A stretch of DNA of 64,000 nt from an uncultured virus (IMG/VR IMGVR_UViG_3300037419_001523) (IMGVR_UViG_3300037419_001523), one strand, 5' to 3'. Shown: positions 1 to 24,024, numbered from the stretch's first letter. Program-made: numbers and translations. Notes: a model not told the origin generated them from the sequence alone.

Positions 1-505
1 TATCATTATATTTTGTTATGGTATCCTTATTTAATCCTAGAGCCTTTGAAGTTGTTTCAATTGCTGGATATGCAATTTGTTTGATCTGTTCATCTGTCCT
101 ATTTATAAATGAATTGTAATAGAAAAATAGTCTTAATCCTATTACACCAATATTTTCTATTCTGTTTAGAATACTTGCCGGAACTTGTTTAAATGTTAAG
201 TTATCCAATGGCAGAGGCTCAAACGTTAAATTTAGCGTTCCTTTTGTTGGTAATGAGTTAATGTATTCTAATATATACCCTTGTTTATGTAATGTTAAAA
301 ATGCCTTTTTAAGCGTTCTGTTATCTGATATGTATAATTTATGTTTGAATTTGTTATGATCAATTGTCATTTCGTTATTATTATAATTTCTGAAATGTAA
401 AAAGGTTAAGTATGTATAGACTGCAAATGTATTTGAATCTATTTTAGATATTTCATTTCTTGCAATACAATCTGGAATTTGAATAAAAATTTGTTTCTTT
501 TCCAT
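1..505 (-). CDS. Tandem winged-helix DNA-binding/replication-initiator-like protein (runs off the left edge)
   Basis: Not in the ORF track because its stop lies outside the window. ATG at 505 follows an AAGGAG RBS. It reads MEKKQIFIQIPDCIARNE...FAVYTYL...GLRLFFYYNSFIN...AYPAIETTSKALGLNKDTITKY, an HTH_36-like pattern resembling the 8892-9662 protein. Confidence 0.65.
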   Translation of the reverse strand, partial: MEKKQIFIQIPDCIARNEISKIDSNTFAVYTYLTFLHFRNYNNNEMTIDHNKFKHKLYISDNRTLKKAFLTLHKQGYILEYINSLPTKGTLNLTFEPLPLDNLTFKQVPASILNRIENIGVIGLRLFFYYNSFINRTDEQIKQIAYPAIETTSKALGLNKDTITKYND

Positions 506-567
506 ATTAAATAAACATCTCCTTAAAGGTTAATAAACTAATTAAATAAACAAAATAAACAATACAA

Positions 568-750
568 CTATTTAAATATCTTATTATATTTTTCTATACT
601 GTTATTAAGTTCCTCCGTTCTCTCATATGCCCAAAATTTATTTTTTGTATGTTCATGTAACCCTGTTAGTAAGTAAGGTATTTTACAAGTGTTATGTAAA
701 TATTTATGTAGCATTGGGCTATAGCAGCAAAAAACTTTTGATTCTGACAT
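568..750 (-). CDS. Small DUF5659-like protein, paralog of 26286-26474
   Basis: AAAGGAG RBS. The pattern F.CYS..L..(Y/F)L.....Y...G..E.T...FW...RTEELNN is shared with the 26286 ORF. Confidence 0.7.
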   Translation of the reverse strand: MSESKVFCCYSPMLHKYLHNTCKIPYLLTGLHEHTKNKFWAYERTEELNNSIEKYNKIFK

Positions 751-910
751 TATGTGTCTCTCCTTTAATTAACTTATATTTTAAATAACTATTTCACTCT
801 AGGAAAAGACTTTTCTACCCTCCTTTCAAAAAGTATAAAATATCCCTCATTGTAATAATACCATCATTTTTCAATTGCGACAATACTTTTATTTAATTAT
901 TTTTTATAAA

Positions 911-940
911 TAAAAAAGAGCCAGCTTTATAACTGACTCC
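911..940 (-). terminator. Intrinsic terminator
   Basis: Minus strand GAGTCAG-ttataaa-GCTGGCTC followed by TTTTTT; a related copy lies at 2951-2980. Confidence 0.7.
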
Positions 941-955
941 TGTTATATGATTCTG

Positions 956-1534
956 TTATAGGTTGCTGTTATCGTCCTTTTTATCCTTTTCAATTTCCTT
1001 TTTAAGCTTCTTAACGTCCGCAGGTAATGTTATCTCTAATTGTTCCTTTTCCTCTTCAAATTGGCTTGCTAATTCCCCTGTATGTCTGTTAAATTCAATC
1101 AGTGACCCTGAAGGAGATAAAGCCTGATCTGTCATTTTTGTATAAGTTCCATACATTTCTTTTAATGCTGCATAGGATTCTTTATATTTTTCAGGTGGAT
1201 TCTGTAATAGTTTCATATTATTTCTTATTTTTTCCTGATCTTTTTCAATGTCACTTAATAGTCCTTTTTCCTCAATGCCATCTTTAAAGGTTGTTATTGC
1301 TACATTAAAGTCATTTCCTTTATCAATAGCATTGTTCCATACGTCCGAATAAGTTGAGACAATTACACTTGATAATACGAATTGTGCATATAAATCGAAT
1401 GATGTTTCTGCCAGTCGTTTAGAGTACTGTTTTTCCTGTTTGACTTGTTGGACGCTGTTATATTTTGTATATGAAAAGCCACCTAGACCAATGACCATAA
1501 GAACCGCAACAATTGAAATTATTAACTTTTTCAT
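956..1534 (-). CDS. N-terminally membrane-anchored helical protein of unknown function
   Basis: MKK followed by a hydrophobic stretch (LIISIVAVLMVIGLGGF); AAGGAG RBS. Confidence 0.75.
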   Translation of the reverse strand: MKKLIISIVAVLMVIGLGGFSYTKYNSVQQVKQEKQYSKRLAETSFDLYAQFVLSSVIVSTYSDVWNNAIDKGNDFNVAITTFKDGIEEKGLLSDIEKDQEKIRNNMKLLQNPPEKYKESYAALKEMYGTYTKMTDQALSPSGSLIEFNRHTGELASQFEEEKEQLEITLPADVKKLKKEIEKDKKDDNSNL

Positions 1535-1713
1535 TTTATTTATCTCTCCTTAATTAAATTTATATTTGTTTTTCTTAATGGCAAAGTGACTGGACGGTAA
1601 ATTCTTTCTAATTCAGGCTTGATTAGGCTTATTTTCATGATAAAACTCTCCTTTTAATTATTTATTTTGTTATATAGGCAGCCCATTCTGTTATAGACTG
1701 CCTGTTATATTGA

Positions 1714-1968
1714 TTAATACATTGATCCTTGCATGAATTCCTTAACTGGTTCTGTTATAGCTGTTAATAAATAGCCCTCATCATCGTAAACGTTATTTGT
1801 TATTAAATCTCTGCCGGATAAATCATATTTGATAATGAATTTTTCAATTTGTTCATTTGCTTTGAAAAAGGTTAATCCTTGGACAGTTTCAATGGAATTT
1901 GAACCATCAGAGACAAAAACATCGTAAATATTTGAATCTTTGTATTCATCAATAATAATTTTAATCAT
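1714..1968 (-). CDS. Hypothetical early protein
   Basis: 84-aa ORF with GGAGG RBS. Confidence 0.7.
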   Translation of the reverse strand: MIKIIIDEYKDSNIYDVFVSDGSNSIETVQGLTFFKANEQIEKFIIKYDLSGRDLITNNVYDDEGYLLTAITEPVKEFMQGSMY

Positions 1969-2042
1969 CTGTTATAACCTCCACATGATAATTTATTTCT
2001 GTTATAGGGAACTATAGTTCAAGTTCCCCTGTTATACTGCTG

Positions 2043-2519
2043 TTATGCCATTTCATGTAGCCATTTAGCATTATCAAAGTTAAGTAATCCACCAGCTTCT
2101 AAAATGGATTTAAGGGCTTTACGTCCACCAATTGGATTATATGGTACTTCTCCACCATCTTCTACAAATGACAGATAACCTAGTTCAGGGTGCTTTAATG
2201 CGTATCCAGTGGGCTTATAATAACCACCAATTGCTTTAAATTTTTGAGTGCCTAATTTAACTATGGAAAGTTTAGAATTGATCTGATTAACCTTTTCAGC
2301 CTCAATACATACAAGGTTATATATTTGTTTTAATACTGGCATTCCTCCATTGTCTGCAATTTCTGTTGCGATAAAGTGAAACTTATTGATAAGTTTACCG
2401 ATTTCATCATTTTGAAAATCTGCTTCATAAATGATTTTTTCTAGGTTACCTGATGAGAATTTACCGTTTTCTCTGTATTCTTGAATCATGTTTTCGATAA
2501 TGGTTTTTAGTTGTTTCAT
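2043..2519 (-). CDS. Hypothetical early protein
   Basis: 158-aa ORF with AGGAGG RBS. Confidence 0.75.
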   Translation of the reverse strand: MKQLKTIIENMIQEYRENGKFSSGNLEKIIYEADFQNDEIGKLINKFHFIATEIADNGGMPVLKQIYNLVCIEAEKVNQINSKLSIVKLGTQKFKAIGGYYKPTGYALKHPELGYLSFVEDGGEVPYNPIGGRKALKSILEAGGLLNFDNAKWLHEMA

Positions 2520-2604
2520 TTTAAATTCCTCCTATACGCTTTAAGCGTTTATTTAATTATTTCATTGGACTCCTATAAATCTGTTATAGAAGTCCTAGCA
2601 ACAA

Positions 2605-2784
2605 TTAAATGATATGCTGATCATTTTCGTACATTTCTTTTAAATCGTATCCTTGTTTAGTTAAATATTTTTCAATTTGGTTAAAAGTAACTTCTTGAAT
2701 GATATCCTCGATTTCTTCTAAATCTAAACCCATGCAATTTTGATCTTCCTTGAAAATGTCTAATACGAATTCTTGATAATTCAT
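2605..2784 (-). CDS. Small acidic hypothetical protein (MNYQEFVLD...)
   Basis: The AAGGGG RBS favours the internal ATG at 2784 over the ORF-track start at 2844, which overlaps the promoter. Confidence 0.6.
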   Translation of the reverse strand: MNYQEFVLDIFKEDQNCMGLDLEEIEDIIQEVTFNQIEKYLTKQGYDLKEMYENDQHII

Positions 2785-2832
2785 TTTAATTTTCCCCTTT
2801 CGAGTTACCGTTTTATTTGATTTCTTATACAT

Positions 2833-2861
2833 AGCATAACCCATAAAATATATAATATCAA
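2833..2861 (-). promoter_or_regulatory. sigma-A-like promoter
   Basis: TTGATA-17 nt-TATGCT; the spacer ends in TTTATGGGT. Confidence 0.55.
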
Positions 2862-2982
2862 GTTATTTTTGATTAAATTTTACAAATATTTTTAAATTAT
2901 TTTTTATGCTGCTGGATCAGTTTTCAAATAAAATCATACTTTCAATTGCAAAGAAAAAGACCAGCTTTAAATGCTGATCCTG

Positions 2983-3210
2983 TTATAGTACCCTTACTAT
3001 TTTTGGCAATGGTTTTTTGAATCCTTTATGTAAATCTAATAACCATTGTTTATTTCCGTTTAAAAAATCATTTAAATCAAGTCCAGCATATTCACCATTA
3101 AAACCATGTACAAAGACAATATTATTATACTTTTTACTTTTCCTCATTGTTTTAATTTCCATATTACATAATTCAGCCCGTTCTTTAATAGCTTTTTTAA
3201 ATTGCATCAT
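2983..3210 (-). CDS. Hypothetical early protein
   Basis: 75-aa ORF with GAGGAGG RBS; overlaps the stop of the upstream gene. Confidence 0.7.
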   Translation of the reverse strand: MMQFKKAIKERAELCNMEIKTMRKSKKYNNIVFVHGFNGEYAGLDLNDFLNGNKQWLLDLHKGFKKPLPKIVRVL

Positions 3211-3449
3211 GCTGCTACCTCCTCATAAGTTCCAATTTCATGCTTTACTTTTCCAAATGAGATATAAATTTTACCCTCTTCAAATTTCATTGTTTTTATT
3301 ACTGTAGTCATTCTCATTCCGTCTTTAATTGCTGTCATATATAGTCTTTTTCCTTTTGATTCTTTAATTTTAAGTGAATCATATACATATTGATCTTGTT
3401 TGCCGGATTGCTCAATTGTCCAAGTGTGAATGTTTAATTTAATTGCCAT
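3207..3449 (-). CDS. Hypothetical early protein (MAIKLNIHTW...)
   Basis: GGAGG RBS precedes the ATG at 3449. Confidence 0.65.
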   Translation of the reverse strand: MAIKLNIHTWTIEQSGKQDQYVYDSLKIKESKGKRLYMTAIKDGMRMTTVIKTMKFEEGKIYISFGKVKHEIGTYEEVAA

Positions 3450-3497
3450 TGTTACAACCTCCAAAGGGTTCAAATTTAGTTAACTTCTATATTTACA

Positions 3498-3526
3498 ATT
3501 ATAAGCCCATAAACAAACAAAGTCAA
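3498..3526 (-). promoter_or_regulatory. Near-consensus sigma-A promoter
   Basis: TTGACT-17 nt-TATAAT; the spacer ends in TTTATGGGCT. Confidence 0.75.
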
Positions 3527-3598
3527 ATACTTTTGTATAATTATCCTTAATAAAAAGATAATTTTATAGGTAAAGAAAAAGACCATCCTATCAGATAG

Positions 3599-3814
3599 TC
3601 AAAATTGATAAACTTTGCCCATTCGCTTTTCTTTCTTAATTCCTAATACATTTTGTTTTCCATCCCTGATAATCCTATTGTTATGATCTAGAATACATTC
3701 AGAAAAGCCTAATTCATATTCTCCGGTTAAGTTAAACTGTTTATTTGCTTCTGCTCGTGTTTCATATTCTTCTATAATACGTGTTCCATATCTCCATAGA
3801 ATAAGTTTATACAT
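3599..3814 (-). CDS. Hypothetical early protein
   Basis: 71-aa ORF with GGGGTG RBS and a terminator-like element downstream. Confidence 0.65.
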   Translation of the reverse strand: MYKLILWRYGTRIIEEYETRAEANKQFNLTGEYELGFSECILDHNNRIIRDGKQNVLGIKKEKRMGKVYQF

Positions 3815-3829
3815 TTAATATCACCCCTG

Positions 3830-4267
3830 TTAATAATCCGTATCTTCTAACATTGTTTCAGCCATGTTTTGCATATCCTGAAGAGTTAAAAAGTATTTTG
3901 ATTTATCTAAGTTGTAAATATTTATATCTGCAATATCTTTCAAGGCTCTTTTTAATGATTGAACATGATCCTTATTTAATTCCATATCATAATCATATAA
4001 TTCTTCTAATACATCTAATTTCCCCTGTAATTGCTGAATAATGTTATAGGCATCATATAGCAAGGATTCTGCATGATTATCGAATATATAGCCATCATCA
4101 TCTTCGCAACCATCTATATAGTCTTTAATCTTGCGTAAATCCCTTACTGTTATACAATTTTCACAAATAATACCATCAAACAAAGTTTTTCCTACATGTC
4201 TATATGGTTCATCTATATGTATTATGTTATTACAATCTTTACAATTTCCTCTTTTGTATTCCCACAT
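3830..4267 (-). CDS. Hypothetical protein with N-terminal CxxC...CxxC zinc finger
   Basis: CKDC...CENC motifs; abuts the upstream gene. Confidence 0.7.
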   Translation of the reverse strand: MWEYKRGNCKDCNNIIHIDEPYRHVGKTLFDGIICENCITVRDLRKIKDYIDGCEDDDGYIFDNHAESLLYDAYNIIQQLQGKLDVLEELYDYDMELNKDHVQSLKRALKDIADINIYNLDKSKYFLTLQDMQNMAETMLEDTDY

Positions 4268-4672
4268 TTAAAAATCATCCCCTAGTCCAAAAGTTTTTCT
4301 TTCTAAGTCAGTTAATTCCCTATATAAATTGTTTTTATAATCTAAATGTATTTTATTTAATTCACATTCAAGGTTAACTATTTCTCGTTTCAATCCCCGA
4401 CACATTACCGTTAAATCTTGTATTTGTGCATCTTTTAATGATATTTGTTTTTCTAATTCTCTTTTAATCTCCAGTAAATTTAAGTTTCCTTTAAATTGTT
4501 GGTCTGTGTATGTTTCATAATAATATACCGATTGATCATAACTCTTTATAGTTTTTATCATCCATTCTATTTGCTCATCATCTAGGTTTAAATAGCCCCT
4601 GTTAGATACTTTTAAACCGTTTTTAAAGTCTTCCTCTATTTCATTTAACATTTGTTTATCATGTTCATACAT
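4268..4672 (-). CDS. Hypothetical coiled-coil protein
   Basis: 134-aa ORF with AAGGAGG RBS. Confidence 0.7.
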   Translation of the reverse strand: MYEHDKQMLNEIEEDFKNGLKVSNRGYLNLDDEQIEWMIKTIKSYDQSVYYYETYTDQQFKGNLNLLEIKRELEKQISLKDAQIQDLTVMCRGLKREIVNLECELNKIHLDYKNNLYRELTDLERKTFGLGDDF

Positions 4673-4793
4673 TGCTTATAGCCTCCTTAAATCACTATTA
4701 AATTTTATATAATGGTAAGTAATATCATTACAAATATAATCAACTAATTCACCAAAAGAAACTAATCCTCTTTGATACATGTTATATAATTGT

Positions 4794-4979
4794 TTAATTT
4801 GTTTTTCTATTATTATCTCCACCTTCTTCTATAACTTTTAATCTGTTATTTTTTATTTCTAGGATTCTTCCACATTCGCAACCATTTAAACCTTCTTTTA
4901 ATTTGTACGCTAATAGTTTTCTTTCCTCTAGGCTTAACCTTTATTTTCTTGCACATTTACCGCATGTAATTTTATTCAC
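4794..4979 (-). pseudogene. Frameshifted small zinc-ribbon ORF
   Basis: GTG-start MNKITCGKCARK* continues in the -1 frame as IKVKPRGKKTISVQIKEGLNGCECGRILEIK...; the shift falls in the AGAAAAT run near 4945. Confidence 0.45.
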
Positions 4980-4986
4980 TGTTATA

Positions 4987-5208
4987 TCACTTCCTATTTC
5001 TTTTGTTATGTAATTGTTTATTGATATGTTTTACAAGCCTGTTAAATTGACTTTGACTCGAATAATTAAATAATACCTGATCATTTTCTGTTATTTTTCT
5101 GGTATCTGTTAAGGCTCCTAAAACCATTTGCCAGCCTTCAAACTTCCCTAACATACACTGCATTAATGGATTAAAAGTAAATAGGATTTTATATTGTTCA
5201 TTGTACAT
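4987..5208 (-). CDS. Hypothetical early protein
   Basis: 73-aa ORF with AGGGGTGG RBS. Confidence 0.65.
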   Translation of the reverse strand: MYNEQYKILFTFNPLMQCMLGKFEGWQMVLGALTDTRKITENDQVLFNYSSQSQFNRLVKHINKQLHNKRNRK

Positions 5209-5253
5209 ATTTCCACCCCTTTTTTATTTGATTAATTATTTAAAGGCAACCGT

Positions 5254-5652
5254 TCAGGCTGCCTCTTTGTTTAATGTTTTATAAGCGAAGTCTAATGCAA
5301 TTTTCATTCCTTTGTATTGATCCATACTGTTATAAATAAAGTCGTATTCTTGTTCTATTAGTTCTAATCCTTCAATAGTCCAAGAAAACGGAAAAGCTTT
5401 TAAACCTTGTTCTTTTTCAATTTGTCTTTGCCAGCTTTCAAGGCTTTCAAAGTGACTTTTTCCATATACACTTGTTATTCTCACACTGTTTTCTATGTTC
5501 ATTATTTCTTGTTTAGTGAAGAATAATTTCATCATATCTTTCATTGCGTTCAGTCTAGTTAGTTCCCTTTCAGATTTTTCACCAGATAGGAAGTAGTAAT
5601 TAAATTGATCCTTGTAAGTATCAATCATCATTTGTTTTTCGTTCGCTCTCAT
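5254..5652 (-). CDS. Hypothetical early protein
   Basis: AAGGAG RBS; upstream promoter TTTACT-17-TATAAT at 5691-5719. Confidence 0.7.
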   Translation of the reverse strand: MRANEKQMMIDTYKDQFNYYFLSGEKSERELTRLNAMKDMMKLFFTKQEIMNIENSVRITSVYGKSHFESLESWQRQIEKEQGLKAFPFSWTIEGLELIEQEYDFIYNSMDQYKGMKIALDFAYKTLNKEAA

Positions 5653-5859
5653 TATAAGCAACTCCTTTAATTAACTTATTTGTTAATTAAATTATAACAT
5701 CTAAACAAAAATAAGTAAATATTAAAAATGATAATTTTAAGATTTTTTTATAAATATTTTCCAGTGTGTATAAATCATATATTTATATACTTGTCAATAG
5801 TTTATTATAAATAATTTAAAAAGTTTTCCGGCTATATGTTCCCGAATAAAACGGCTGCT

Positions 5860-5994
5860 TTATAGTATCAATTCCACTTTACGTACAGAGTTTTTACCAG
5901 TCCATTCTTCAACAAGATAAATAGCATGTTCAGCGTCCCATGCTTGGATAGTTGTTGTTTTGAAGTTCTTTAGATACAATTTATAATTTTTCAT
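5860..5994 (-). CDS. 44-aa hypothetical protein (below the ORF-track cutoff)
   Basis: AGGAG RBS; MKNYKLYLKNFKTTTIQAWDAEHAIYLVEEWTGKNSVRKVELIL*. Confidence 0.55.
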   Translation of the reverse strand: MKNYKLYLKNFKTTTIQAWDAEHAIYLVEEWTGKNSVRKVELIL

Positions 5995-6089
5995 GTTTAA
6001 ATGGCTCCTATTCGTTTATTTTGGGCTTATAAGGTAAATGTATTAGGAAAGGAGTTATAAAGGATTATAACCCATTTATGTTCGTTTGC

Positions 6090-7592
6090 TTATGCTAATT
6101 TTCTTTTTCTGTAGCTTGCAAAGTCGATTATATTACCCTTTACAATATTTTCTTTTACTGGTTCGTTTACTTGTTCCATAACTTCCTTTGTAACTCTTTC
6201 AAGATTGCTATTTATTTCATTTAATAATCCTTTTACCTTTTCCACTACTTCGAAGCGTTCCGGCATTTGGACTGCACACCAGCAATATTTTTTACCATTC
6301 CAATAAAAACCTACAGACTTTAATAATTTAATAATTGTTTGTGAAGGTTTGCTGCTGAAATATAATTCAATTCCTTTTTTCTTTTCGTTAAGTTCAACTT
6401 TTAAAGTAACGGAAGGAATAGCAATTTCTTGTTCGGTAGTTTCAATTATTTTGCTTTCAACTTCTTCAATAATTTCTTTTGTTGGTTGTTCTGGTGCTTC
6501 ATTCTCGATAATTGCCGTATATCTTGCGTAATCGTATCCTTGAGGATCAATTAATAAGGAGAAGTTTTCACGCTCTATTTTCACTTCTAATGCTAGGTTA
6601 TAGGCTCCTTTAATCCATTTCGCCTGCTCTGATTCGGATAATTTGTAAAAGTCCTCTGTATCCTCTACAGGCTCATAAGATGAACTAGAACCGCCTTTAA
6701 AAGTTGTATTTAAATCTTTCATATCGAATGTAATTGAAAATTGTTCGAATGTTTCTTTGTTAACTGTGATTGATTCAGCAACAACATATTTTTCTAAAGT
6801 TGCCATACGTTTATTTTTCAATTCATCAATATTGAATACTTTAGAACTAAACCAAGCATATTTAATTTCTTTTCCTTCTGGAGTAGTTTCATTTGGTAAA
6901 GTTACTTCATTAGTTGCTTTTGTTGCTCTTTCCATTTCTTTTTCATAACGTGTAGCCATTTCCAATTCTTTACTAATATCAAACTTAGCACCAATCATGA
7001 AAGAAGTTTTATTTTTATTTCCTAATTGTTTTAACATTGTAATTGCAGTCTCATAAGCTTTTCTAATTTTGCCGTATGATTTTAACCCAGTTAGTAACAA
7101 TTCTTTTAATGCTAAACCAGTTACAACAACCGAGTTATTTAATTGAATCATTCTTTCATCAGATAAGATTCTCCGAGAATTTACTTCAATGTAATAAATA
7201 TCTGTATTGTTAATTGTAATAGGCTCATAAGCAATTGCATCATATTCGTTTAGGAGTTCAATACCTGTTAAAATTGTTTGGGATTTAACTAAACCGTATC
7301 CATAGTAACTTTCATCTTTATTAACAGTCACATTGTAAAGCCCAGTAAGATCAATATTGTTTTCGTTTAAAGTTGCTTGGAAATTATCTTTCTCTTGTTG
7401 AGCTACAATTTCTTTTTGTTTAGATTCATCAGATAGGAATGTTTTAACTGCTGAAATAATTTCCTCTTTATGAGTTCGGGAACCTTTACCTTTTACCTTG
7501 GTATCATACTTATCATAGTAAGTTACAATTGCTTGAATACCTTCTCCAGTAACTTCATAAGTGAAACTTTCTAAACGGTTAACTTTTAACAT
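6090..7592 (-). CDS. Multidomain polyvalent-type early protein
   Basis: Contains IDPQGYDYARY (DUF6329-like) and VELNEKKKGIELYFSSKPS...LK..GF.W....CW, motifs I recognise from polyvalent proteins of conjugative elements and phages. Promoter TTGTAT-17-TATAAT at 7638-7666. Confidence 0.65.
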   Translation of the reverse strand: MLKVNRLESFTYEVTGEGIQAIVTYYDKYDTKVKGKGSRTHKEEIISAVKTFLSDESKQKEIVAQQEKDNFQATLNENNIDLTGLYNVTVNKDESYYGYGLVKSQTILTGIELLNEYDAIAYEPITINNTDIYYIEVNSRRILSDERMIQLNNSVVVTGLALKELLLTGLKSYGKIRKAYETAITMLKQLGNKNKTSFMIGAKFDISKELEMATRYEKEMERATKATNEVTLPNETTPEGKEIKYAWFSSKVFNIDELKNKRMATLEKYVVAESITVNKETFEQFSITFDMKDLNTTFKGGSSSSYEPVEDTEDFYKLSESEQAKWIKGAYNLALEVKIERENFSLLIDPQGYDYARYTAIIENEAPEQPTKEIIEEVESKIIETTEQEIAIPSVTLKVELNEKKKGIELYFSSKPSQTIIKLLKSVGFYWNGKKYCWCAVQMPERFEVVEKVKGLLNEINSNLERVTKEVMEQVNEPVKENIVKGNIIDFASYRKRKLA

Positions 7593-7713
7593 TTAAAACA
7601 CTCCTTAGTGAATATGTAGTATTTATCTTATATACTTATTATAAACCATGATTGCGGATAATACAATACATTTAGTTATTTATTTTTAATTAATTTGAAA
7701 TTAGTTCGAACGT

Positions 7714-7729
7714 TATTTCATGTGAAACA
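7714..7729. promoter_or_regulatory. parS-like (Spo0J/ParB) site
   Basis: TATTTCATGTGAAACA matches the parS consensus TGTTTCACGTGAAACA at 14/16 and is intergenic. Confidence 0.5.
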
Positions 7730-8107
7730 TTGTCATGTAGTATTGAAAACTATGTATAGTAGTAATAATGATACACTGACCAAATTTGTATTTTAGTCAA
7801 TAAATAGCATGAAATATATATGGTTACAAAAAGTAAGTAACTTACTATTAATAATTAAACTGTAACATTTTTTATTACAGAATACTTCACTGCAACCAGT
7901 CATGTTATATGCGATACTTTACCGAACTAAAGTATATTAACAAAAATAATGGATTAGCTTGTACAATCAAATAATACTGATCATGCAGTCACTGGTGTAT
8001 GATTGCAGCTTTAAACGGTTAAAAGTAATTAAATGAATGAGTGTTCATCAGTTCTTATTCTAAGGAATATTATATAGGCAATTAAAGAGGGTTATTGATC
8101 CAATAAG

Positions 8108-9866: not shown

Positions 9867-12140
9867 CTACGTACCACTTTCCCTCCATTTATTTATCTCA
9901 TTTTCATCAACGTTAATTTCATAACGTTTATTTGGTAATTGAATTAACCACTCATCATCCACAAGTTCATGAATTAAAGCATGGACTTTATTCATAGCAA
10001 TACCCATCAAATCTTGTAAATGAGAAACACGTAATTCTCCTGTTGTAGCAATAATCCTTTTCAATTTATCAATTGGTTTTTCAACTTTAACCTCCTCTAA
10101 TTCACCACCATCCACCACAACATCCTTAAACAATTCCTTCAAACTATCATATATATCTTCTTCATCTTCCTCAACTAAAGTTAATATCGTTGACTGAAAA
10201 CGTTCATATTCCTTTAACTGCCCTTCTAGTCTACACACTCCATCTCCTTTACCTAACAAGTTATAAGGAATCCCTTTTCCAAATACAGTTGTATAATCTG
10301 ATGAAGTTTTCAATCTAAAACTAATTGCTGAAGGTAAATTACTTTTCAACACACTTGTAACAATATCTGCTAAAGGTTTCTGTGTGCAAATGATTAAATG
10401 TATACCTGCTGCCCTAGCCATTTGCCCTAATCGTACTAAATGATCTTCTACATTCGCATTAACCATTACTAAATCTGCATATTCATCTACTGCAACAACA
10501 ATATATGGAATCTTAACTTCATTATTTTTGTTGTAGGTTGCTATGTTTCTTACTCCACTTTTAGCGAATAATTCATATCTCTTTTCCATTTCATTTACTA
10601 ATGAAGATAACAATGCATCCGCCTTTTTCATATCTGTGATTATCTTTTTAACTTGAGGAAATCCTTCAAAGAATGTGTACTCAACCTGTTTAGGATCAAC
10701 TAAGTATAATGCTAATTCATCAGGTGGAACATTCAATAACAAACTGAGTAAGAGTAAATTTACGAATACAGATTTACCTGAACCTGTTGCTCCTGTAACT
10801 AATAAATGTCTTAATTCGGCTAAGTCACTAAACATTAATCCTCCATTCACATTTTCCCCAATGATAAAAGGGAGGGGGTATTTTTCCTTGTGCTGTTGAA
10901 ATTCCTCTGATTCTAAGATGCCCCTAAAATATACGATTCCTCTTTCTTCCAATGGTACAAAAACATTAATCGTATCAGGTTTATCACCAATCTCTACACT
11001 CACTCCTTCATTACCTAAAGCAGCTTTAATATCAGTTAACTTTTTTGTAATAGATGTATACGTAATTTCTGGTGGAATGACCATCTGAACTTTTAACAAA
11101 CTTGCTCCTTGATGAAGTTCACTGACTTTTAACGGTTTCTGTACAATTCCAACCCTTTTAAACGCTTGATTTATTAATTGTGCTTTAGATTGATCAACTT
11201 CCACATTCTTATTTTCACTCTTAGGCATTAATTGAATTGCTTTTTGCAATAGCATACTGTCTTCCAAACTCTTAACTACACTTTGTTGCTTGATTGGTTT
11301 CTCTAATTCAACCTTTGTAACAGTAGAAGGTTTTTCATTGCATAAAACACTAAAAATCTCACTTTCTGATAACATTTGATTCACTAAATCAACCTGAAAC
11401 TCCCTATTTTCAATCAATTTGATAAAATTACGCTTATTTTTTACCTTTTTTACCCTAAATTCATTAAAAAGTTGTAGTTTTTGTAGGTTTTTCTCCATAT
11501 TTTCAACAAAATGATTCACATATTTCTGTTCATAAACAATAAATCTTGATTCAAAACGATAATTTTGACTGAGTATCTTCTGCTCCATTTCCTCAATCTG
11601 ATCTCGTTTAACTTGGAAATTGTTTAGTTTAGTCAGTATGTTAATAACTTTCTCTTGTAACTTGATAGTAAACTTATTCCCTAATGGAGTATCATTACCA
11701 GAAAGATAACTAGTATACTGCTGAATTACATTTTCTCGCCAATTATCTAATCTTTTGCATAATAACACTTGAGAAAACACTGTTGCATTAGGAAAATTAG
11801 TAACACAATTAAATAAATCAATAAATTGTTTTGTATCTAGTGGCATGAATAATGGTTTTTCTAAAACTAACTCAAATACAGTCAATTCCTTTACATCTTC
11901 ACTCTTGAACTCCCATTTTTTATCTGTGACAATTAAATTTTGTTTATCAAAGGAGGGGGTAATTAAATATTTCTCCCTATAGTCAGGCATACTTAATTGC
12001 TCCAGACAATATACCCCTTCCCCAATAAATCGTGATTGTAATATTTGATTGATTAAGTTGGAACTGAATCCATCTATTTCATACACATTTGATTTTTCAT
12101 TGACTAAAGGTGTTTTGTTGATCATTCGTGAAAGTGTCAT
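9867..12140 (-). CDS. FtsK/SpoIIIE-family DNA translocase with an atypical soluble N-terminal domain and a gamma-like C-terminal wHTH
   Basis: Walker A GATGSGKS, Walker B VVAVDEYADL, ARAAGIHLIICTQKP and LLGKGD motifs; C-terminal VSHLQDLMGIAMNKVHALIHEL. No obvious N-terminal TM segments. Confidence 0.9.
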   Translation of the reverse strand: MTLSRMINKTPLVNEKSNVYEIDGFSSNLINQILQSRFIGEGVYCLEQLSMPDYREKYLITPSFDKQNLIVTDKKWEFKSEDVKELTVFELVLEKPLFMPLDTKQFIDLFNCVTNFPNATVFSQVLLCKRLDNWRENVIQQYTSYLSGNDTPLGNKFTIKLQEKVINILTKLNNFQVKRDQIEEMEQKILSQNYRFESRFIVYEQKYVNHFVENMEKNLQKLQLFNEFRVKKVKNKRNFIKLIENREFQVDLVNQMLSESEIFSVLCNEKPSTVTKVELEKPIKQQSVVKSLEDSMLLQKAIQLMPKSENKNVEVDQSKAQLINQAFKRVGIVQKPLKVSELHQGASLLKVQMVIPPEITYTSITKKLTDIKAALGNEGVSVEIGDKPDTINVFVPLEERGIVYFRGILESEEFQQHKEKYPLPFIIGENVNGGLMFSDLAELRHLLVTGATGSGKSVFVNLLLLSLLLNVPPDELALYLVDPKQVEYTFFEGFPQVKKIITDMKKADALLSSLVNEMEKRYELFAKSGVRNIATYNKNNEVKIPYIVVAVDEYADLVMVNANVEDHLVRLGQMARAAGIHLIICTQKPLADIVTSVLKSNLPSAISFRLKTSSDYTTVFGKGIPYNLLGKGDGVCRLEGQLKEYERFQSTILTLVEEDEEDIYDSLKELFKDVVVDGGELEEVKVEKPIDKLKRIIATTGELRVSHLQDLMGIAMNKVHALIHELVDDEWLIQLPNKRYEINVDENEINKWRESGT

Positions 12141-14960: not shown

Positions 14961-15119
14961 ATGCAACAACTAGGCTCATGGTTTACAACAAATACAAAGT
15001 CAGCTTGGGAAGAACGTTTAGATTATATGAGCAATTATGCTATTGAGAAAACTGGCATGAACAGAAATGAATTGAAGAAGTTGCTTACTTATTTGGATGA
15101 ACAGGGTATCATACGGTAA
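14961..15119 (+). CDS. 52-aa helical protein, antisense-overlapping the M23 gene 3' end
   Basis: AAAGGGTG RBS; MQQLGSWFTTNTKSAWEERLDYMSNYAIEKTGMNRNELKKLLTYLDEQGIIR*. Confidence 0.55.
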   Translation: MQQLGSWFTTNTKSAWEERLDYMSNYAIEKTGMNRNELKKLLTYLDEQGIIR

Positions 15120-15608
15120 GTGAATTAATTGCATTTTTAAATCACTTAGTACATTCATATGTTGTTGCATGTAATCAAAGAAGTTAAGTTTTGTTGTTTC
15201 AGGAATATGTTGTACGAATTGTTTTACATTCATATTTTGAATATCGTTAATATATGGAGACGGATCGAGAAATTGTCCTTCTCCATTTTTTAATCCGAAG
15301 TGTAAATGACTACCTGTAGAAAATCCTGTATTTCCTGCATGACCTAACAAGTCACCTGCTTGAACACGTTGACCATTATGAACTGAGAAATCATTCAAGT
15401 GTCCATAAATAGCAGTTTTATTATCACCATCCCATTTAACTAAAACGGTTTTTCCTGCATTTACATTTCCGAAATCTTTGATGGTCACAACACCATCTTT
15501 AACTGAACGAATCGGCTCACCTATTTCCATCTTAAAATCAATTCCAGAATGACCATGAGAACGGAAAGATTCTTGTTGACCAAATCGTGATGTAATTTTG
15601 TAACTCAT
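15018..15608 (-). CDS. M23/LytM-family peptidoglycan endopeptidase
   Basis: HSGID, YGHL and GNTGFSTGSHLHF zinc motifs are intact; no signal peptide; hydrophobic/amphipathic C-terminus. Confidence 0.9.
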   Translation of the reverse strand: MSYKITSRFGQQESFRSHGHSGIDFKMEIGEPIRSVKDGVVTIKDFGNVNAGKTVLVKWDGDNKTAIYGHLNDFSVHNGQRVQAGDLLGHAGNTGFSTGSHLHFGLKNGEGQFLDPSPYINDIQNMNVKQFVQHIPETTKLNFFDYMQQHMNVLSDLKMQLIHLPYDTLFIQISKQLLQFISVHASFLNSIIAHII

Positions 15609-15810: not shown

Positions 15811-16908
15811 TTATTTTTGATATTTAGATAAGATACTAGACAAGGCTTTCTTGTCTTTTTGTTTTGGTCGAATTTGTAAATTAGATGATTTGTAAGATAT
15901 ACCGTGACCGCTTGAGAGTATATTTGAAAGTGATTCAGACTCGCTAATGGTTTTGTATTCAATTTGTTTTAATCGTTCTGTATTGAATTCTAAGCCAGTT
16001 AGAATTGTATATACGTCACCTTTATTTTCGTGATAGTATCCTTCAAATGAATCCAAGGTTGGATTTTTAAAATCATTTAATATGTTTTGCGGATTTATGA
16101 ATGTCATCAATCCTTCTTGACCATTAAAAATTAGTCCAAATCGGATAATCTTTGTATACGATGGTTTGGTAAAAATAGACTTTTGCCATGAATGTTTAAT
16201 GGCATCTGTTACAGATTCCTTTGACAATTGAATACCATCATTTTGATTGGTGATATTTGTATAAGCTAAAGTAGAAAATCCTGAAGTTTTAAACAGAGTA
16301 AGCAAATCCTTTTGATCTAAATTTCCATTGTGCGATTGTTTGTCTGTATGTTCAATTATAGAATCAATGATGTTGTAAAAAGTTTGATTTACTCTTTTAT
16401 ACAGTTCATTCTTCCCTTCAATTTTTACTTGTTCATTATCAATTGGTAAGATACAAATATTTAATTCACTGAGCTGCTTCAAACATTCTAACGTATTTAT
16501 CTGATTCGCTATAGGTTCTGACAAACTCGGTAAAATTGGTACGGCTACAATCGTTTTGTCACCTAATTCATTCGCCAATATTTCAAGGAACAATGGACTA
16601 ATTCCACTTCCAGTTCCTCCTGCCGTAGAGAATGTAATAAATATTAATTGAACGGAGGGTTGCGAAAAGTTATCTTTAATATAAGAAACAACAATTTCCC
16701 AATTATTCTGCATTAATGAAACTGCTAAATTTCTATCTCTACCTACCCCTTCTGAACCATGTAAACGTAATTTCAAGTGACTTTCAATATGAATACATGT
16801 ATCTAAGTCTTTTTGAGATGAATTTATTATTCCACTTAAATATCCATTTTGAGAGAATAAATCTGCAATTTGTGATCCACATTGACCTAATCCAATACAC
16901 GCAAACAT
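15811..16908 (-). CDS. tubZ: TubZ-like tubulin/FtsZ GTPase (type III partition motor)
   Basis: IGLGQCGSQIA, GSEGVGRD, tubulin signature AGGTGSG, IDN and NLDQKD T7 loop; basic C-terminal tail. Confidence 0.85.
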   Translation of the reverse strand: MFACIGLGQCGSQIADLFSQNGYLSGIINSSQKDLDTCIHIESHLKLRLHGSEGVGRDRNLAVSLMQNNWEIVVSYIKDNFSQPSVQLIFITFSTAGGTGSGISPLFLEILANELGDKTIVAVPILPSLSEPIANQINTLECLKQLSELNICILPIDNEQVKIEGKNELYKRVNQTFYNIIDSIIEHTDKQSHNGNLDQKDLLTLFKTSGFSTLAYTNITNQNDGIQLSKESVTDAIKHSWQKSIFTKPSYTKIIRFGLIFNGQEGLMTFINPQNILNDFKNPTLDSFEGYYHENKGDVYTILTGLEFNTERLKQIEYKTISESESLSNILSSGHGISYKSSNLQIRPKQKDKKALSSILSKYQK

Positions 16909-17189
16909 TACACTTCAACTCCTTCGGTGATTTTTTGAATTGCCATTACTCCATAATCAGTCAAATAGAAATGGTGAAACCTATTTAATTTGGTTACTTC
17001 AATAAACATAAGTAATTCTAATCGTTCGATTACTTTTCTTAGTGCATACTCACCTATTCCTGATTCTGTTGTGATTTGTGACTTATCTAATGACTGAAAT
17101 TTATTTATCGAATCCTTGGACAATAGAATATTCATGATTAATAAATCATCTCTACTTAGTCGCTTAACAATTGCATCAAAGTGATTCAT
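16908..17189 (-). CDS. tubR: TubR-like winged-helix adaptor
   Basis: 93-aa wHTH (GIGEYALRKVIERLELLMFIE...FYLTDYG) overlapping the tubZ start by 1 nt. Confidence 0.65.
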   Translation of the reverse strand: MNHFDAIVKRLSRDDLLIMNILLSKDSINKFQSLDKSQITTESGIGEYALRKVIERLELLMFIEVTKLNRFHHFYLTDYGVMAIQKITEGVEV

Positions 17190-17258
17190 TAATTCTTCCT
17201 CCTTGTTGTTTATTTCAAAGTTGTTGTAGAATTGATGCTCTTTGTCGTTGATTAATAC

Positions 17259-17289
17259 ACTATATGAACATACTGTTTGTACTGATTCA
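17259..17289 (-). promoter_or_regulatory. sigma-E/K-like promoter upstream of tubRZ
   Basis: TGAATCAGTACAAACAGTATGTT-CATATAGT; shares AGTACAAA and CATAYART with the 14271-14301 promoter. Confidence 0.4.
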
Positions 17290-17353
17290 ATAATTACAAT
17301 AAAAATTGTATTTTTTTAATTAAAATATTTTTATAACTTTTCACTAAAAATCG

Positions 17354-17382
17354 TTGACTAATCAAAATTAATTTGATATATT
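17354..17382 (+). promoter_or_regulatory. Extended -10 sigma-A promoter, duplicated at 38804-38832
   Basis: TTGACT-17-TATATT with TG; 28/29 nt identical to 38804-38832. Confidence 0.7.
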
Positions 17383-17418
17383 TATAATTGACAAGTATAT
17401 TAGAAAGGAGGATTCACA

Positions 17419-17619
17419 ATGTTAAAATCTAAAATCAAAGTACGATTAGCTGAACTGGAAATTAAGCAGCAGGATTTGAGCGATAAACTTGGTGTTACTA
17501 AACAAACTATGAGTTTGTGGGTAACTGGTAAATCAACGCCTACACTTGAGACTGCGTTTAAGATTGCTAAGTTGTTAGATTGTAAAGTGGATGATTTATA
17601 TATTTATAGGGAGGATTAA
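17419..17619 (+). CDS. XRE/Cro-like HTH regulator
   Basis: IKQQDLSDKLGVTKQTMSLWVTGKSTPTLETAFKIAKLL; AAAGGAGG RBS. Confidence 0.9.
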   Translation: MLKSKIKVRLAELEIKQQDLSDKLGVTKQTMSLWVTGKSTPTLETAFKIAKLLDCKVDDLYIYRED

Positions 17620-17624
17620 AAAAT

Positions 17625-18377: not shown

Positions 18378-18505
18378 TGTAATTTTTTAATTAATTTTCA
18401 GACAACTATTGTCTAAAGATAAATAACTTGATATAATAATAAATATAAAAGAATAATAGTCTTATATTATTTTATATACACATCATAAACAGGAGGTGAA
18501 ATCAG

Positions 18506-18685: not shown

Positions 18686-18704
18686 AAAAGGAGGAGTATT
18701 AAAT

Positions 18705-21700
18705 TTGACAATTGCTTTAGAAAAACAGGTTTACATCTACTCAGTGGATACCTCTAGTTTCTATAATGAAAACGAACAGAAAATACATAAGAAATTGTTA
18801 AAATCCTATAGATATAGAGATCACTTAAAGAAACTGGATGGAAATGTTAGTAAGCATAAGAAGTACATAAGCGAACGAATAAGTTCATTAAAAAATAAAC
18901 TAATATTAAACATAAATAAAAATAGTGATATTAGACATTTAAGAAAAGATTCATTAAAGAAAAGCAACGTAATCTCATTATTTGATTCTGTGCTTACTAG
19001 AGTGTTGAAAATTGAGCAAAATTCATTATCAGAAGACATCTTTGTTGTTCAGGCATATTACTTTCAAGTATTAGAAAACATAATTAAGAATGGTTTTATA
19101 CATAATGGTGAGAAATACATATATCTAACGAGTTCAGCCGGACAGATTAGAACAAAACGATCTATCTTCATAAAAGAGTCACTGTGGAATCAACATAAAG
19201 AAACTCTAATGTGTGGATTGTCTGTTGAAGATATTAACACTCAAGGTGGAGTGAATATCAATAAGTATCAAGCTTACCTTGCTCTATCCAATAGTGCTAC
19301 AGATGAGTGGAAGAATTTCAACATCCATAGAAGTATTGTGGTTGATGATTTAGAAACAACTGTACATAGTTTGGTAGATTATATTGACCGTGAAACTTAT
19401 AAGATTACTAGGCAGGAAATGGATATTCCAATTGAGCATACGGATGGTTGTGGAATGATACTTCCAAAAAAGTCTAAGAAAAGCTTCATGTGTCGTTTAC
19501 CTTGGCTCAAAGGTTTATTAGTCCCATTCCCTTTTGATAAGTTTGCTGAAGAATATGATTCGTTTGTTGTGAAGGATATCTATGGTAAGGAATGGGATAT
19601 TGTGAAAGACAATATTGAAGTAATTTTCACTAAATCTCAGTTTAAAATGTGGAAATATTACCAAGATTGGAATGACTACAAAGATAAATTTGTAAAACAT
19701 AGCTGTCAAGCTGCTAAATTGAACGAGGAAGACGTTTCTGCTGATGCTAACCTTAATTATCAGATGATACAAACGTTGACAGATATGACTGATGAAGAAT
19801 TAACAAAAATAAGTCAAAGTACCATTGAAGACATTTTAAAAATTGGCAGTGATAAAGAAACCATGCTTCGTATATTAGGTGCTACTGAAACGAACAGAAG
19901 AAAAAACTACTTTCAACAAGCATTAAGTATGTATCCTGAATTACTGAATGATGAGCATTCTAAGCAAGTTATTAAGGATAAAAAGAAAAGGTTAATCAAA
20001 GAAGCTCGTGCTGGGAAGTTAAATGTTAAAGGGAAATATACCTTCCTAGTTCCTGATTTGTTTGCATTTTGTGAAAGATTATTTCTTAGAATCGAACAAC
20101 CAAAGGGATTACTTGCTAAAGGTGATGTATATTGTGATTTGTTTGATGAAGGTAAGGTTAATTGCTTACGTGCGCCTCATCTCTTCCGTGAGCATGGGGT
20201 TCGAAATAATGTATTAGATGAAGGAAAAGCAAAATGGTTTATCACTCGTGGGGTATACACTAGCATTCATGATCCAATTAGTAAGATATTGCAATTTGAT
20301 AATGATGGGGATAAATCCTTAGTTGTCAGTGACAAGACATTTGTTGAAGTCGCAGAACGAAATATGAAAGGTATTGTACCTTTGTATTATGAAATGGCTA
20401 AAGCCCCTGCTGAACAAATTAACAGTGAAGATATTTATAAAAGTTTAGTTTCTGCATACAAGGCTAACATTGGTGAGATTAGCAATAACATAACTAAGAT
20501 ATGGAACAGTGACAATGTTAATTTGGATGTTATCAAATGGCTGTGTATGGAAAATAATTTCACAATTGATTAAATTCTTAGTCCCTCCATATAGTGATAT
20601 ATGGATGTGCAGTCGGTGAACCTGTAAACACAGGGTGTTTGGTTAACGTTTAGTGGCAGTAGGAAATGACTGTTAATAACCAAGCTAACAGGGAAAATCT
20701 AAGTAATACACTTCACATTTTTTATATAATATATTATTAATCAAGGAGGTGATAATTATGAAGTTCATCAATGAGGATCAATCTAAAAATCTATGTGGAA
20801 TTTATAAAATAACTCAGATTAGTAATGGTCGTATTTACATTGGTCAAACAAAAATGAGATTTATAAAGAGATATTGGCATCATGTATGGAAATTGAATGA
20901 TGGAAGTCATGATAATAACTTTCTGCAAAATGCTTGGAATAAATACGGAGAAAGCGATTTTATGTTTGAAGTGGTTGAAATTATGAATCGTGATGAAAAT
21001 ATGAACAAACAAGAAATTATGTACATTGAGAAATACGATACTTATCATAATGGATTCAATATGACGCTCGGTGGTGAAGGTAAAAAAGGCACTCCGATGT
21101 CAGAACAAACAAAAGAAATTGTAGGTAGAAAAAACAGAATCCATATGTTAGGTAAAAAACACACCGAAGAAACAAAAAGAAAAATGAGTTTGTCTAGTCA
21201 TAGACGTAAAATCACTTCGGAACATGCTGAAAATTTAAGAAAATCCAGATTAGGAAGTAAACATAGTGAATCCTCTAAGCAGAAAATGAAGGAAGCGAAA
21301 TTAGGAGTCGGTTCAGCAATCAATGAATCTCAGGCTTTTGAAATAAAGAATAGATTAATAAATGGTGATAGGATTATAGATATTGCAAACGAATTAGACA
21401 TTGAATATCACAATGTTAAATCAATTCTTCAAGAAAAAGTATGGACTCATATTAAGGTAGATGGATGGGGTGATTTTATTGTTGAATATAAAAAACGGAA
21501 AAAAGAATCTTTGACAGATGACCAAGTAAGAGAAATTAGAAATTTAATAGACAAAGGATATTCTGCTCCTGAAATATCAAAATTATGTGATATTGGAGTA
21601 TCAGTTGTTTATGGTATCAAACAAAACCGAACTTATAAAAATGTGAAGTAAGACAAATAAGAGTGTATTATATGACAATCCTGTGCCAAGTCTCTAATTA

Positions 21701-22479
21701 GAGAAAGGTGCAACGACCATCCTGAAATGGAGTAGGATCGGGGTGAAACTCCTCTTTCCGAAGTGCCGACCAACTATTGCGTAAATAGTTGATGATATGG
21801 TCTATTCCCTTCAAATATAGCGAAAGCTAGGGTATAAAAGTATGCTAAAACTCTTTTCATGCCAACTAGACCAGAAGATGTCAATCAAATTATTTCACAG
21901 TACATAAAAGCGAAAGTACCTCATTTTTTCATTTATGCAAAGGATAAGGAAGAAAAGAATGTTGAAAAATTGAATGACAGTGTGGTAAATAAACTTAATT
22001 ACCTTGTTCCTAACAAACCTATTCAATTCAAAAAAATATTAGGTAAATTAAATTATAAAATGCTCATGAAAAACAAAAAAGTTTCAACTGATGAAAGCAT
22101 TATTGTGACTTTTGAGAAACTAGATAAAAGTAAAAGATGGTTGATTAAATCTAAAGAAAAAAGTGAATCAAATGAAACATTATTTATATACAAATATATA
22201 AGAGAAGAATTATTAAAAACCCATGATGATATTAATTATGTTGTAGATGTGTTAGTTAAATATTTATATATTAAAAAGAGTAGCAGAAAAGAAACGTTGT
22301 GGAAATCATTTGGTGATATTTTATTTGAGAATTTACAGTATAACCTAGAAAACACTAAACAATGTGAATCATGTGGTTCAAGAATTGATATTAAATCTAA
22401 CAAAACGAAATATTGCAATGACTGCGCTAAATATATAAAAAACGAACAAAACAAATTATACTATCATTTAGGAAAATAG
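18705..22479 (+). CDS. yonO: YonO-like single-subunit DNA-dependent RNA polymerase, two exons (18705-20570 + 21841-22479, about 834 aa)
   Basis: [25 protein letters not shown] and catalytic QFDNDGD motifs. The exons join in frame as [19 protein letters not shown]-terminal CxxC...CxxC zinc finger. Confidence 0.88.
20571..21840 (+). mobile_element. Group I intron in the RNA polymerase gene
   Basis: Exon ends in U and intron ends in G. P1 GAU/UAA pairs with UUAGUC giving a U.G at the splice site. Core-like segments CAAGCTAACAGGGAAA, AATCCTGTGCCAAG, GTGCAACGACCATC and GATATGGTCTA. Confidence 0.88.
20749..21651 (+). CDS. Intron-encoded GIY-YIG homing endonuclease with NUMOD3 repeats and C-terminal HTHs
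   Basis: CGIYKI...IYIGQT, GFN and [10 protein letters not shown] / [10 protein letters not shown] repeats. Confidence 0.92.
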   Translation: MIIMKFINEDQSKNLCGIYKITQISNGRIYIGQTKMRFIKRYWHHVWKLNDGSHDNNFLQNAWNKYGESDFMFEVVEIMNRDENMNKQEIMYIEKYDTYHNGFNMTLGGEGKKGTPMSEQTKEIVGRKNRIHMLGKKHTEETKRKMSLSSHRRKITSEHAENLRKSRLGSKHSESSKQKMKEAKLGVGSAINESQAFEIKNRLINGDRIIDIANELDIEYHNVKSILQEKVWTHIKVDGWGDFIVEYKKRKKESLTDDQVREIRNLIDKGYSAPEISKLCDIGVSVVYGIKQNRTYKNVK

Positions 22480-23967: not shown

Positions 23968-24024
23968 TCGGACTACTTTCGAGTAGTCTTTTTTGTTTTT
24001 GAGGAATAAAAGGAGGAATTACAA

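Follow-up and report, generated by a model that had tools for sequence, protein, structure and literature searches.

An octamer array in an early gene block

The window analysed here is a 64,000-nt stretch of the uncultured virus IMGVR_UViG_3300037419_001523, and its subject is an octamer, CTGTTATA on the plus strand, that recurs throughout a block of small, fast-evolving early genes. The genes of this block belong to no known families, with no Pfam or PHROG function. All open reading frames (ORFs) between 1 and 17189 are on the minus strand. Because the block genes run in this direction, the messages of the window carry the octamer as TATAACAG, or UAUAACAG in RNA, as an earlier note made from the sequence had read it.

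The array is real and far beyond chance. An exact count over the whole window gives 14 plus-strand copies within 940-5334, some 400 bases apart (Table 1); the earlier note had recognised this one-strand cluster and counted 13. It had also seen no copies in the rest of the window, which is nearly right, as a single copy lies on the other strand at 27064 (-). Dinucleotide shuffles of the whole window (n = 100) contain the octamer 3.14 times on average and at most 8 times. Within the 6-kb block, an order-2 Markov background, the comparison that the earlier note had proposed, predicts 0.68 sense copies against the 14 seen, and 0.13 antisense copies against none. The 7-mer CTGTTAT behaves in the same way, with 20 plus-strand copies all within 318-5327, none elsewhere on that strand and four on the minus strand.

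Several copies are closely associated with gene ends and predicted hairpins. A script places nine of the 14 octamers in intergenic sequence, four in coding sequence and one over a stop codon, to which reading of the sequence adds the TAA stops contained in octamer 2980 and in 7-mer 2040. In two of the three predicted terminators, the stem opens with the last AG of the octamer, and these two terminators are about 71% alike over 34 nt (repeat family D4). Three other hairpins between genes (-12.2 to -16.6 kcal/mol, z -4.2 to -6.0) either have copies on both sides or carry AACAGA or CAGAU as their loop. The placement at stems given in the earlier note is thus borne out: 940 and 2980 abut terminators, 1999/2029 flank a hairpin, and 1688 and 2581 lie inside hairpins. 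No octamer is present at the four sigma-A-like promoters of the block, and an Rfam search of window positions 1-25000 (E <= 0.1) returned no matches.

Two 41-nt leader and start regions (AAGTTAATTAAAGGAG...ATG), at 748-788 and 5650-5690, belong to the first genes of two units and are 80% identical. From their sequence, the units of the block look as if they were assembled from repeated regulatory modules.

Table 1. Positions of the octamer copies, block features and associated genes in the window, and of arrays and MazF/PemK genes in other carriers.
Sequence	Feature	Position	Strand	Remarks
Window	Block of small genes	300..5800	-	At least four transcription units
Window	Sigma-A-like promoters (predicted)	5719-5691, 3526-3498, 2861-2833, 883-855	-	Within block
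Window	Intrinsic terminators (predicted)	3600-3581, 2981-2957, 941-916	-	Within block
Window	Octamer copy, sense TATAACAG	940..947	-	Final AG opens stem of terminator 941-916
Window	Octamer copy	953..960	-	Contains TAA stop of gene 956-1534
Window	7-mer copy GATAACAG	966-972	-	13 nt upstream of octamer 953..960
Window	Octamer copy	1455..1462	-	Within gene 956-1534, frame TAT AAC AG
Window	Octamer pair (starts 1688 and 1702), 14 nt apart	1688..1709	-	At intergenic hairpin, -16.6 kcal/mol, z -6.0; AG of upstream copy opens stem, downstream copy has UAU in stem and AACAGA in loop
Window	Octamer copy	1752..1759	-	Within gene 1714-1968, frame x ATA ACA G
Window	Octamer copy	1969..1976	-	Fills gap between ribosome-binding site GGAGG and ATG of gene 1714-1968
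Window	Octamer copies 1999 and 2029	1999..2047	-	Either side of 8-bp hairpin, -12.2 kcal/mol, z -4.2
Window	7-mer copy	2040-2046	-	Contains TAA stop of gene 2043-2519
Window	Octamer copy	2581..2588	-	Intergenic hairpin, UAUAA in stem, CAGAU as loop; -15.5 kcal/mol, z -5.1
Window	Octamer copy	2980..2987	-	Contains TAA stop of gene 2983-3210; opens stem of terminator 2981-2957
Window	Octamer copy	4147..4154	-	Within gene 3830-4267
Window	Octamer copy	4979..4986	-	Immediately after TGA stop of gene 4987-5208
Window	Octamer copy	5327..5334	-	Within gene 5254-5661
Window	Six extra 7-mers, ATAACAG with other first letter	318, 599, 966, 2040, 4843, 5088 (span 318..5094)	-	
Window	FtsK/SpoIIIE-like gene	9867..12140	-	37% identical to Bacillus myophage FtsK-like proteins
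Window	YonO-type single-chain RNA polymerase gene, two pieces	18705-20573 and 21859-22479 (span 18705..22479)	+	Pfam PF05183 RdRP 7e-9; phrog_8308 7e-264
G002	Octamer array	2.8-17.1 kb		32.6 kb; 30 / 1 copies by strand
G003	Octamer array	70.4-83.9 kb		139 kb; 30 / 2 copies by strand
G004	Octamer array	60.6-67.6 kb		130 kb; 18 / 6 copies by strand, ~17 in array
G005	Octamer array	0.9-12.6 kb		197 kb; 30 / 10 copies by strand, 21 in array
G017	Octamer array	75.4-79.9 kb		136 kb; 7 copies in array
Perkons	MazF/PemK gene	15268-15588		
G002	MazF/PemK gene	2252-2566		
G004	MazF/PemK gene	57106-57435		
G005	MazF/PemK gene	15117-15443		
G017	MazF/PemK gene	66643-66948		

The same word in other phages

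The earlier note had proposed looking for the octamer in relatives. Viral contigs were scanned for nearby copies (two- and three-copy patterns) and the copies were then counted; the carriers are at least those listed here. The identical word forms one-strand, block-limited arrays in the window, in the cultured Psychrobacillus phage Perkons and in at least five uncultured records (G002-G005 and G017). Perkons has 15 octamers in 5.7-22.6 kb and one elsewhere, and 27 versus 1 for the 7-mer. Sense copies far exceed expectation in Perkons (15 against 0.92), G002 (30 against 2.24), G003 (30 against 1.55), G004 (16 against 1.60) and G005 (21 against 1.48), and antisense copies within the blocks number none in the window, Perkons, G002 and G003 and one each in G004 and G005. 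The copies are confined to blocks of 5-17 kb (14 of 15 in the window, 15 of 16 in Perkons, 30 of 32 in G003) at a strictly one-strand density of about one per 400-600 bp. Summed over seven blocks, a total that includes the record G012 described below, 137 sense octamers are found against 9.2 expected, with 2 in antisense.

The window belongs with SPbeta, a temperate Bacillus phage. Its YonO protein is 66% identical to that of SPbeta and is followed by a YonK homologue (68% identical), from which the block can be placed on the arm transcribed divergently from the polymerase and late genes, like yonR-yop in SPbeta. YonO is a single-chain RNA polymerase that transcribes SPbeta late genes (PMC5467207). 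A YonO gene is present in six of seven dense arrays (at least seven are known, the window included and G012 apart). The corresponding family, phrog_8308, was found in G002, G004, G005 and G017 and not in G003, which is 75% complete. It was found in none of seven other records tested; one of these is G012, with an 11-copy array, and the other six hold few octamers each, mostly in coding repeats.

Beyond this, the carriers have little in common. There is no nucleotide similarity between the window and the other carriers, a nucleotide search with window positions 1-8000 against phage records gave no match, the YonO proteins of the carriers are 22-29% identical to that of the window, and almost no block proteins are common to them. 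Other YonO-encoding phages, namely SPbeta (three copies), D-1873, c-st, TR-TP1 and PMBT24, contain scattered octamers and no array. The array is under selection and is conserved in a scattered subgroup of SPbeta-like temperate phages that encode YonO. Since the exact octamer persists through gene turnover in phages whose shared proteins are 22-30% identical, a conserved reader and function are indicated.

G012 is a fragment of a PolA-type phage in whose 65 kb no YonO, MazF or YopR was found. Four of its 11 copies fall at strong sigma-A-like promoters, between -6 and +2 and accompanied by other copies at a distance of 17 nt, and one lies in a promoter spacer.

Some other occurrences of the word stand apart. 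In G005, a phage of 25% G+C, six of the 21 copies belong to a longer repeat between genes, TATAACAG-N9-TATAAT/C, in which the second box is preceded by TTCC (locus L364, 2949-4510). The geometry of this repeat recalls activator-box promoters; the octamer as an activator box located 9 nt upstream of a -10 element was rejected as a general explanation, as this arrangement is found in G005 and not in other phages. Many matches of the pattern scan proved to be coding repeats (collagen-like, fibre or pentapeptide; L055, L147, L166, L012, L047, L030, L074, L032, L075 and L037) and were set aside. In a contig of a Clostridia metagenome-assembled genome (L307, 3824-4001 and elsewhere) and in G018, the word makes up a palindrome, TGTTATATAACAG, within 36-nt tandem arrays, and also forms inverted pairs; these probably represent an unrelated operator system. 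A candidate for an analogous octamer in PMBT24 was rejected, as its top word, GCTACTGC, lies in structural genes.

Sequence specificity and placement

Alignment of 126 copies reveals no informative column outside the octamer, whose consensus is (T/C/a)(A/g)TAACAG. Position 1 is loose (CATAACAG at 7.8 times and AATAACAG at 3.1 times expectation), position 2 accepts G (3.4 times expectation), and the TAACAG core tolerates no change. This core is complementary to the usual anticodon loop of tRNA-Asn, CUGUUA, probably by coincidence. No consistent partner hexamer occurs at sigma-A spacing, and a role as a -10 or -35 element was rejected on this ground.

Across the arrays, roughly half of the copies fall between genes, and those in coding sequence are restricted to the two stop-free frames (TAT-AAC-AG and x-ATA-ACA-G), the third providing TAA stops. 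Other copies overlap stop codons, ribosome-binding sites (TATAAC-AGGAGG) or hairpin feet, and tandem copies are 11-19 nt apart without helical phase. The word looks fitted in where it is cheapest, at stops, ribosome-binding sites and stem feet, which suggests that selection acts on copy number along the block and not on one fixed position.

In two soil metagenome runs, a variant lacks gene 2983-3210, with position 2984 joined to 3209 in such a way that CTGTTAT is rebuilt; the upstream gene now ends in CTGTTAT, which provides both its new stop and a terminator foot. In total, three of ten joint ends in metagenome variants lie at most 2 nt from a copy, the joints being taken from metagenome contigs at a likeness threshold of 80%, some with short sides. 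The octamer is a self-contained, strand-specific signal that is kept through gene gain and loss.

A possible tag read on the early messages

The octamer may be a processing or antitermination tag that acts on RNA or, coupled to transcription, on the coding strand. This reading is tentative, with a probability of about 35%, and is weakly favoured over its close rival, stoperator-like sites on DNA; that RNA is the level, and what the effect is, we infer. A factor would bind or cut the octamer on the RNA, or on the coding strand displaced while the block is transcribed. What becomes of each segment of the polycistronic early transcript, read-through or stop at the abutting hairpins, would then depend on its reading, which would also set where new 5' ends arise. 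In Bacillus-type hosts, a hairpin or ribosome-binding site at the 5' end protects and stabilises mRNA. As hairpins or ribosome-binding sites directly follow many octamers, a factor that binds or cuts there could control hairpin formation or make protected 5' ends.

The evidence for such a tag comes from orientation and local context. An RNA antitermination or processing signal was the first of three alternatives in the earlier note, and it now leads on the strength of its sense-only orientation, of the four in 13 predicted terminators in six arrays that have an octamer at the 5' foot of the stem, and of an excess of hairpins opening at the 3' edge of the octamer (21 of 126 copies versus 182 of 2344 control AG sites, p = 0.001). 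Runs resembling ribosome-binding sites also follow the octamer more often than expected (14 of 126 versus 145 of 2344 controls, p = 0.03). Known antitermination sites of the LicT/SacY type, called RAT sites, are structured, about 30 nt long and present once per terminator. The overlap of the octamer with the first bases of terminator stems is similar, but this model applies to only four of the 13 terminators and to few of the copies.

Short sense words on defined early messages are also known as targets of sequence-specific ribonucleases (RNases). T4 RegB cuts GGAG in early mRNAs, and MazF words are enriched in certain mRNAs, such as UACAU in sraP of S. aureus. The octamer resembles these targets in being a short sense word on defined early messages, often at ribosome-binding regions, and in lying beside a gene for such an RNase: a MazF/PemK gene is located in or beside the block, upstream of yopQ/yopR-like genes, in five of the six other arrays (Perkons, G002, G004, G005 and G017). 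The octamer differs from MazF targets in having no UACAU, and cleavage at it is putative. No protein is common to all blocks; only the MazF family (four genomes) and a protein of 500-650 amino acids (three genomes) recur. A phage MazF-type RNase is a candidate reader by position only. In SPbeta and phi3T, the same position is occupied by yopM (phi3T_93), whose product frees host MazF. G003 and G017 also encode, in their late regions, an extra protein of about 290-310 amino acids with a PemK domain.

Several observations weigh against a tag of this kind. Neither a hairpin nor a ribosome-binding site follows 75% of the copies (94 of 126). Mean predicted RNA accessibility is barely raised, at 0.174 versus 0.148 for octamers of matched composition (p = 0.04), and in the window it is below that of controls. 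The promoter copies of G012 would be absent from RNA started there, which suggests reading at the DNA level. G003, with 30 copies the densest array, has no block-adjacent MazF, and MazF is encoded by c-st, TR-TP1 and PMBT24, in which there is no array. The best matches of the G002 MazF are MazF chains from Bacillus and Staphylococcus (4HKE, 4MZM and 4MDX; E ~1e-26). For the closest chains other than B. subtilis EndoA, UACAU specificity is presumed here. EndoA itself is cited as UACAU-specific (reference list of PMC10769878), and the octamer contains no UACAU. Finally, no RNA runs are listed among those containing window DNA.

A second sense-strand octamer, AATACATA, does contain UACAU and is enriched along whole early arms. 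It occurs 17 times against 2.7 expected in SPbeta (NC_001884, 64000-113000; antisense 1), 41 times against 8.2 in Perkons (0.7-84 kb; antisense 2), 28 times against 9.4 in G004 (1-68 kb) and 34 times against 15.2 in G005 (1-105 kb); in G003 it is not enriched (11 against 8.5). Host MazF is described as promoting lysogeny of SPbeta-type phages through a mechanism yet to be characterised, which may be cleavage of lytic transcripts (PMC10769878). One doubtful scenario would join these elements. UAUAACAG would be the address label of a post-transcriptional switch, in which an RNA-binding or RNA-cutting factor, a phage MazF-family enzyme of shifted specificity or a host enzyme, silences or processes the first early block, with its anti-defence and takeover genes, at commitment to lysogeny or at the move to later genes. 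AAUACAUA, which has UACAU, would be the matching MazF label. If so, the UAUAACAG and AAUACAUA labels would answer which transcripts MazF cuts to promote lysogeny.

The block marked by the octamer has the control region on one side and the lysogeny genes on the other in SPbeta-type phages, which serve as a model for phage communication and the choice between lysis and lysogeny. As Perkons is cultured, the signal is directly testable. In the searchable full-text literature, the octamer returned only an unrelated match, searches for MazF together with parts of it gave nothing useful, and a search on YonO by itself yielded only unrelated papers. Passages of the Perkons genome paper on motifs, promoters, RNA polymerase, repeats, transcriptomics and SPBRE mention no such motif.

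Alternative readings

The close rival places the reading on DNA. A phage or host protein would bind each asymmetric copy as a monomer and block or modulate transcription of the early block, which would be silenced in lysogens or switched off once the early phase is over. Stoperators of Cluster A mycobacteriophages, bound by L5 gp71 or Bxb1 gp69, are asymmetric, oriented with transcription, and located within operons and over gene ends. The octamer shares these traits, being a short asymmetric word in many copies that are co-oriented with transcription inside units and often over stop and start regions. Unlike stoperators, which are 13 bp long, occur on both genome arms and include an operator at the early promoter, it has 8 nt, is restricted to one block and is absent from the four promoters of the window. 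An operator-like position at promoters is seen only in G012, where the copies at four strong promoters, with others 17 nt to either side, form a classical operator layout.

A protein of this kind is known from the same lineage. The block ends just before yopQ/yopR-like genes, which come after the array in Perkons, G003, G004, G005 and G017, and MrpR (YopR), the master repressor of SPbeta, binds a repeated, transcription-oriented element, SPBRE (PMC10516654). All ten SPBRE sites mapped in SPbeta are gene-oriented, often just 5' of a ribosome-binding site. The likeness thus extends to phage lineage, genome arm and the use of a repeated gene-oriented element. SPBRE, however, is a quite different site of 16-21 bp, with about ten copies at promoters along the early arm; as mapped (caaatACAAAWAATATGTATA), it shares at most TATA with the octamer, which is shorter, denser and partly coding, and which forms no array in SPbeta. 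Among the carriers, YopR-like proteins share only 25-30% identity with one another, yet the octamer is the same throughout, and the search for a DNA-binding protein present in every block found none. The tandem spacing without helical phase also speaks against a DNA-bound protein, as does the frequency of the site: an 8-bp site present about 180 times in a 4.6-Mb Firmicute genome would titrate its binder. Control by such sites is possible, with the odds against it.

The octamer could instead be a cassette-boundary word, a ready-made gene end (TAA stop, terminator foot, start of a ribosome-binding site) that offers microhomology for the exchange of small early genes between phages, comparable to the promoter-stem-loop cassettes of T4-type phages reportedly described by Arbiol et al. 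in 2010. Block genes are almost unshared between carriers while the octamer is constant, the joint ends described above lie close to copies with one junction rebuilding the 7-mer, and the two octamer-bearing terminators are similar to each other. Yet a word of 8 nt is too short to support homologous exchange, close to half of the copies are located within genes, where they serve no boundary, and a reader is required to explain exact conservation between distant phages. The joints, being drawn from metagenome contigs at 80% likeness and in part short-sided, carry limited weight, and this explanation appears unlikely.

A further proposal, that the octamer is the promoter or start site of the phage YonO-type RNA polymerase with initiation at the final AG, is improbable. 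Start regions of single-chain polymerases are short and AT-rich, and the octamer resembles them. A ribosome-binding site or hairpin often follows copies directly, and in G012 the predicted host start is the same AG. The association of YonO with six of seven dense arrays, against none of the seven other records tested, also agrees with this proposal. The YonO promoter sequence was still undefined in 2017 (PMC5467207). Against it, no copy precedes the polymerase gene, PhoH or the yonK homologue (17150-18720, 22440-22740 and 23940-24060), and copies lie inside genes, in tandem and at terminator feet. Array presence does not track YonO relatedness: five YonO phages have no array, among them SPbeta with its closely related polymerase. 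YonO marks the array-carrying phage group and is probably not the reader of the octamer.

The remaining alternative is a polar DNA signal for a translocase or nuclease, of the FtsK/KOPS or Chi type, or for packaging or injection near a genome end. Its strict one-strand distribution and density would suit such a signal, and the Perkons array opens at a distance of 5.4 kb from the left terminal repeat and is directed inward, in weak agreement with the genome-end signal of the earlier note. There is, however, no mirror array at the other end of Perkons, and a single copy lies outside the block. In five of six Firmicute genomes, none a confirmed host, the octamer is not above its reversed control (e.g. 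90+89 versus 139+151); one Clostridium genome among them shows about a 2-fold excess. The loading signal for the phage FtsK, also proposed in the earlier note, fails because most carriers show no FtsK gene and the word is confined to one block. The window FtsK has no match at E <= 0.001 in G002, G003 or G004, a weak 29% match in G005 and no match in Perkons bases 1-130,000, and an FtsK-based search for relatives in viral contigs found none. The skewed spread along the replicon that characterises KOPS/SRS is absent, and a translocase is not present in every array carrier. As the links to stops, ribosome-binding sites and hairpins are also left unexplained, a polar signal is highly improbable.

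Further features of the phage

The proteins of the window include a portal, a terminase-like protein, tail proteins and a long tape-measure protein in pieces, and the phage is a large temperate siphophage. The two YonO pieces (622 and 206 amino acids) match consecutive parts of phrog_8308, and a GIY-YIG/HNH homing-endonuclease gene (20749-21651) lies between them; an intron, an intein or a split gene could each account for the arrangement. The tape-measure pieces (47852-49759 and 51234-55913, region 47852-55913) similarly match consecutive parts of phrog_4211, with an unrelated 390-amino-acid ORF between them, and a homing-endonuclease-repeat protein is encoded at 45513-46892.

In SPbeta, a 1.7-kb gene-free and G+C-richer stretch separates yonN from yonK (locus L370, 15024-16706). 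The YonO paper places an unannotated non-coding RNA between these two genes (PMC5467207). The window has a PhoH gene at the place that matches this gap.

A tubulin/TubZ-like gene (15811-17189; Pfam Tubulin, 3.5e-16), with a 93-amino-acid gene upstream, may form a partition module; such a module would be in keeping with a prophage maintained like a plasmid. A separate piece of this phage is found in record G001, and window DNA was found in soil and rhizosphere metagenome runs.

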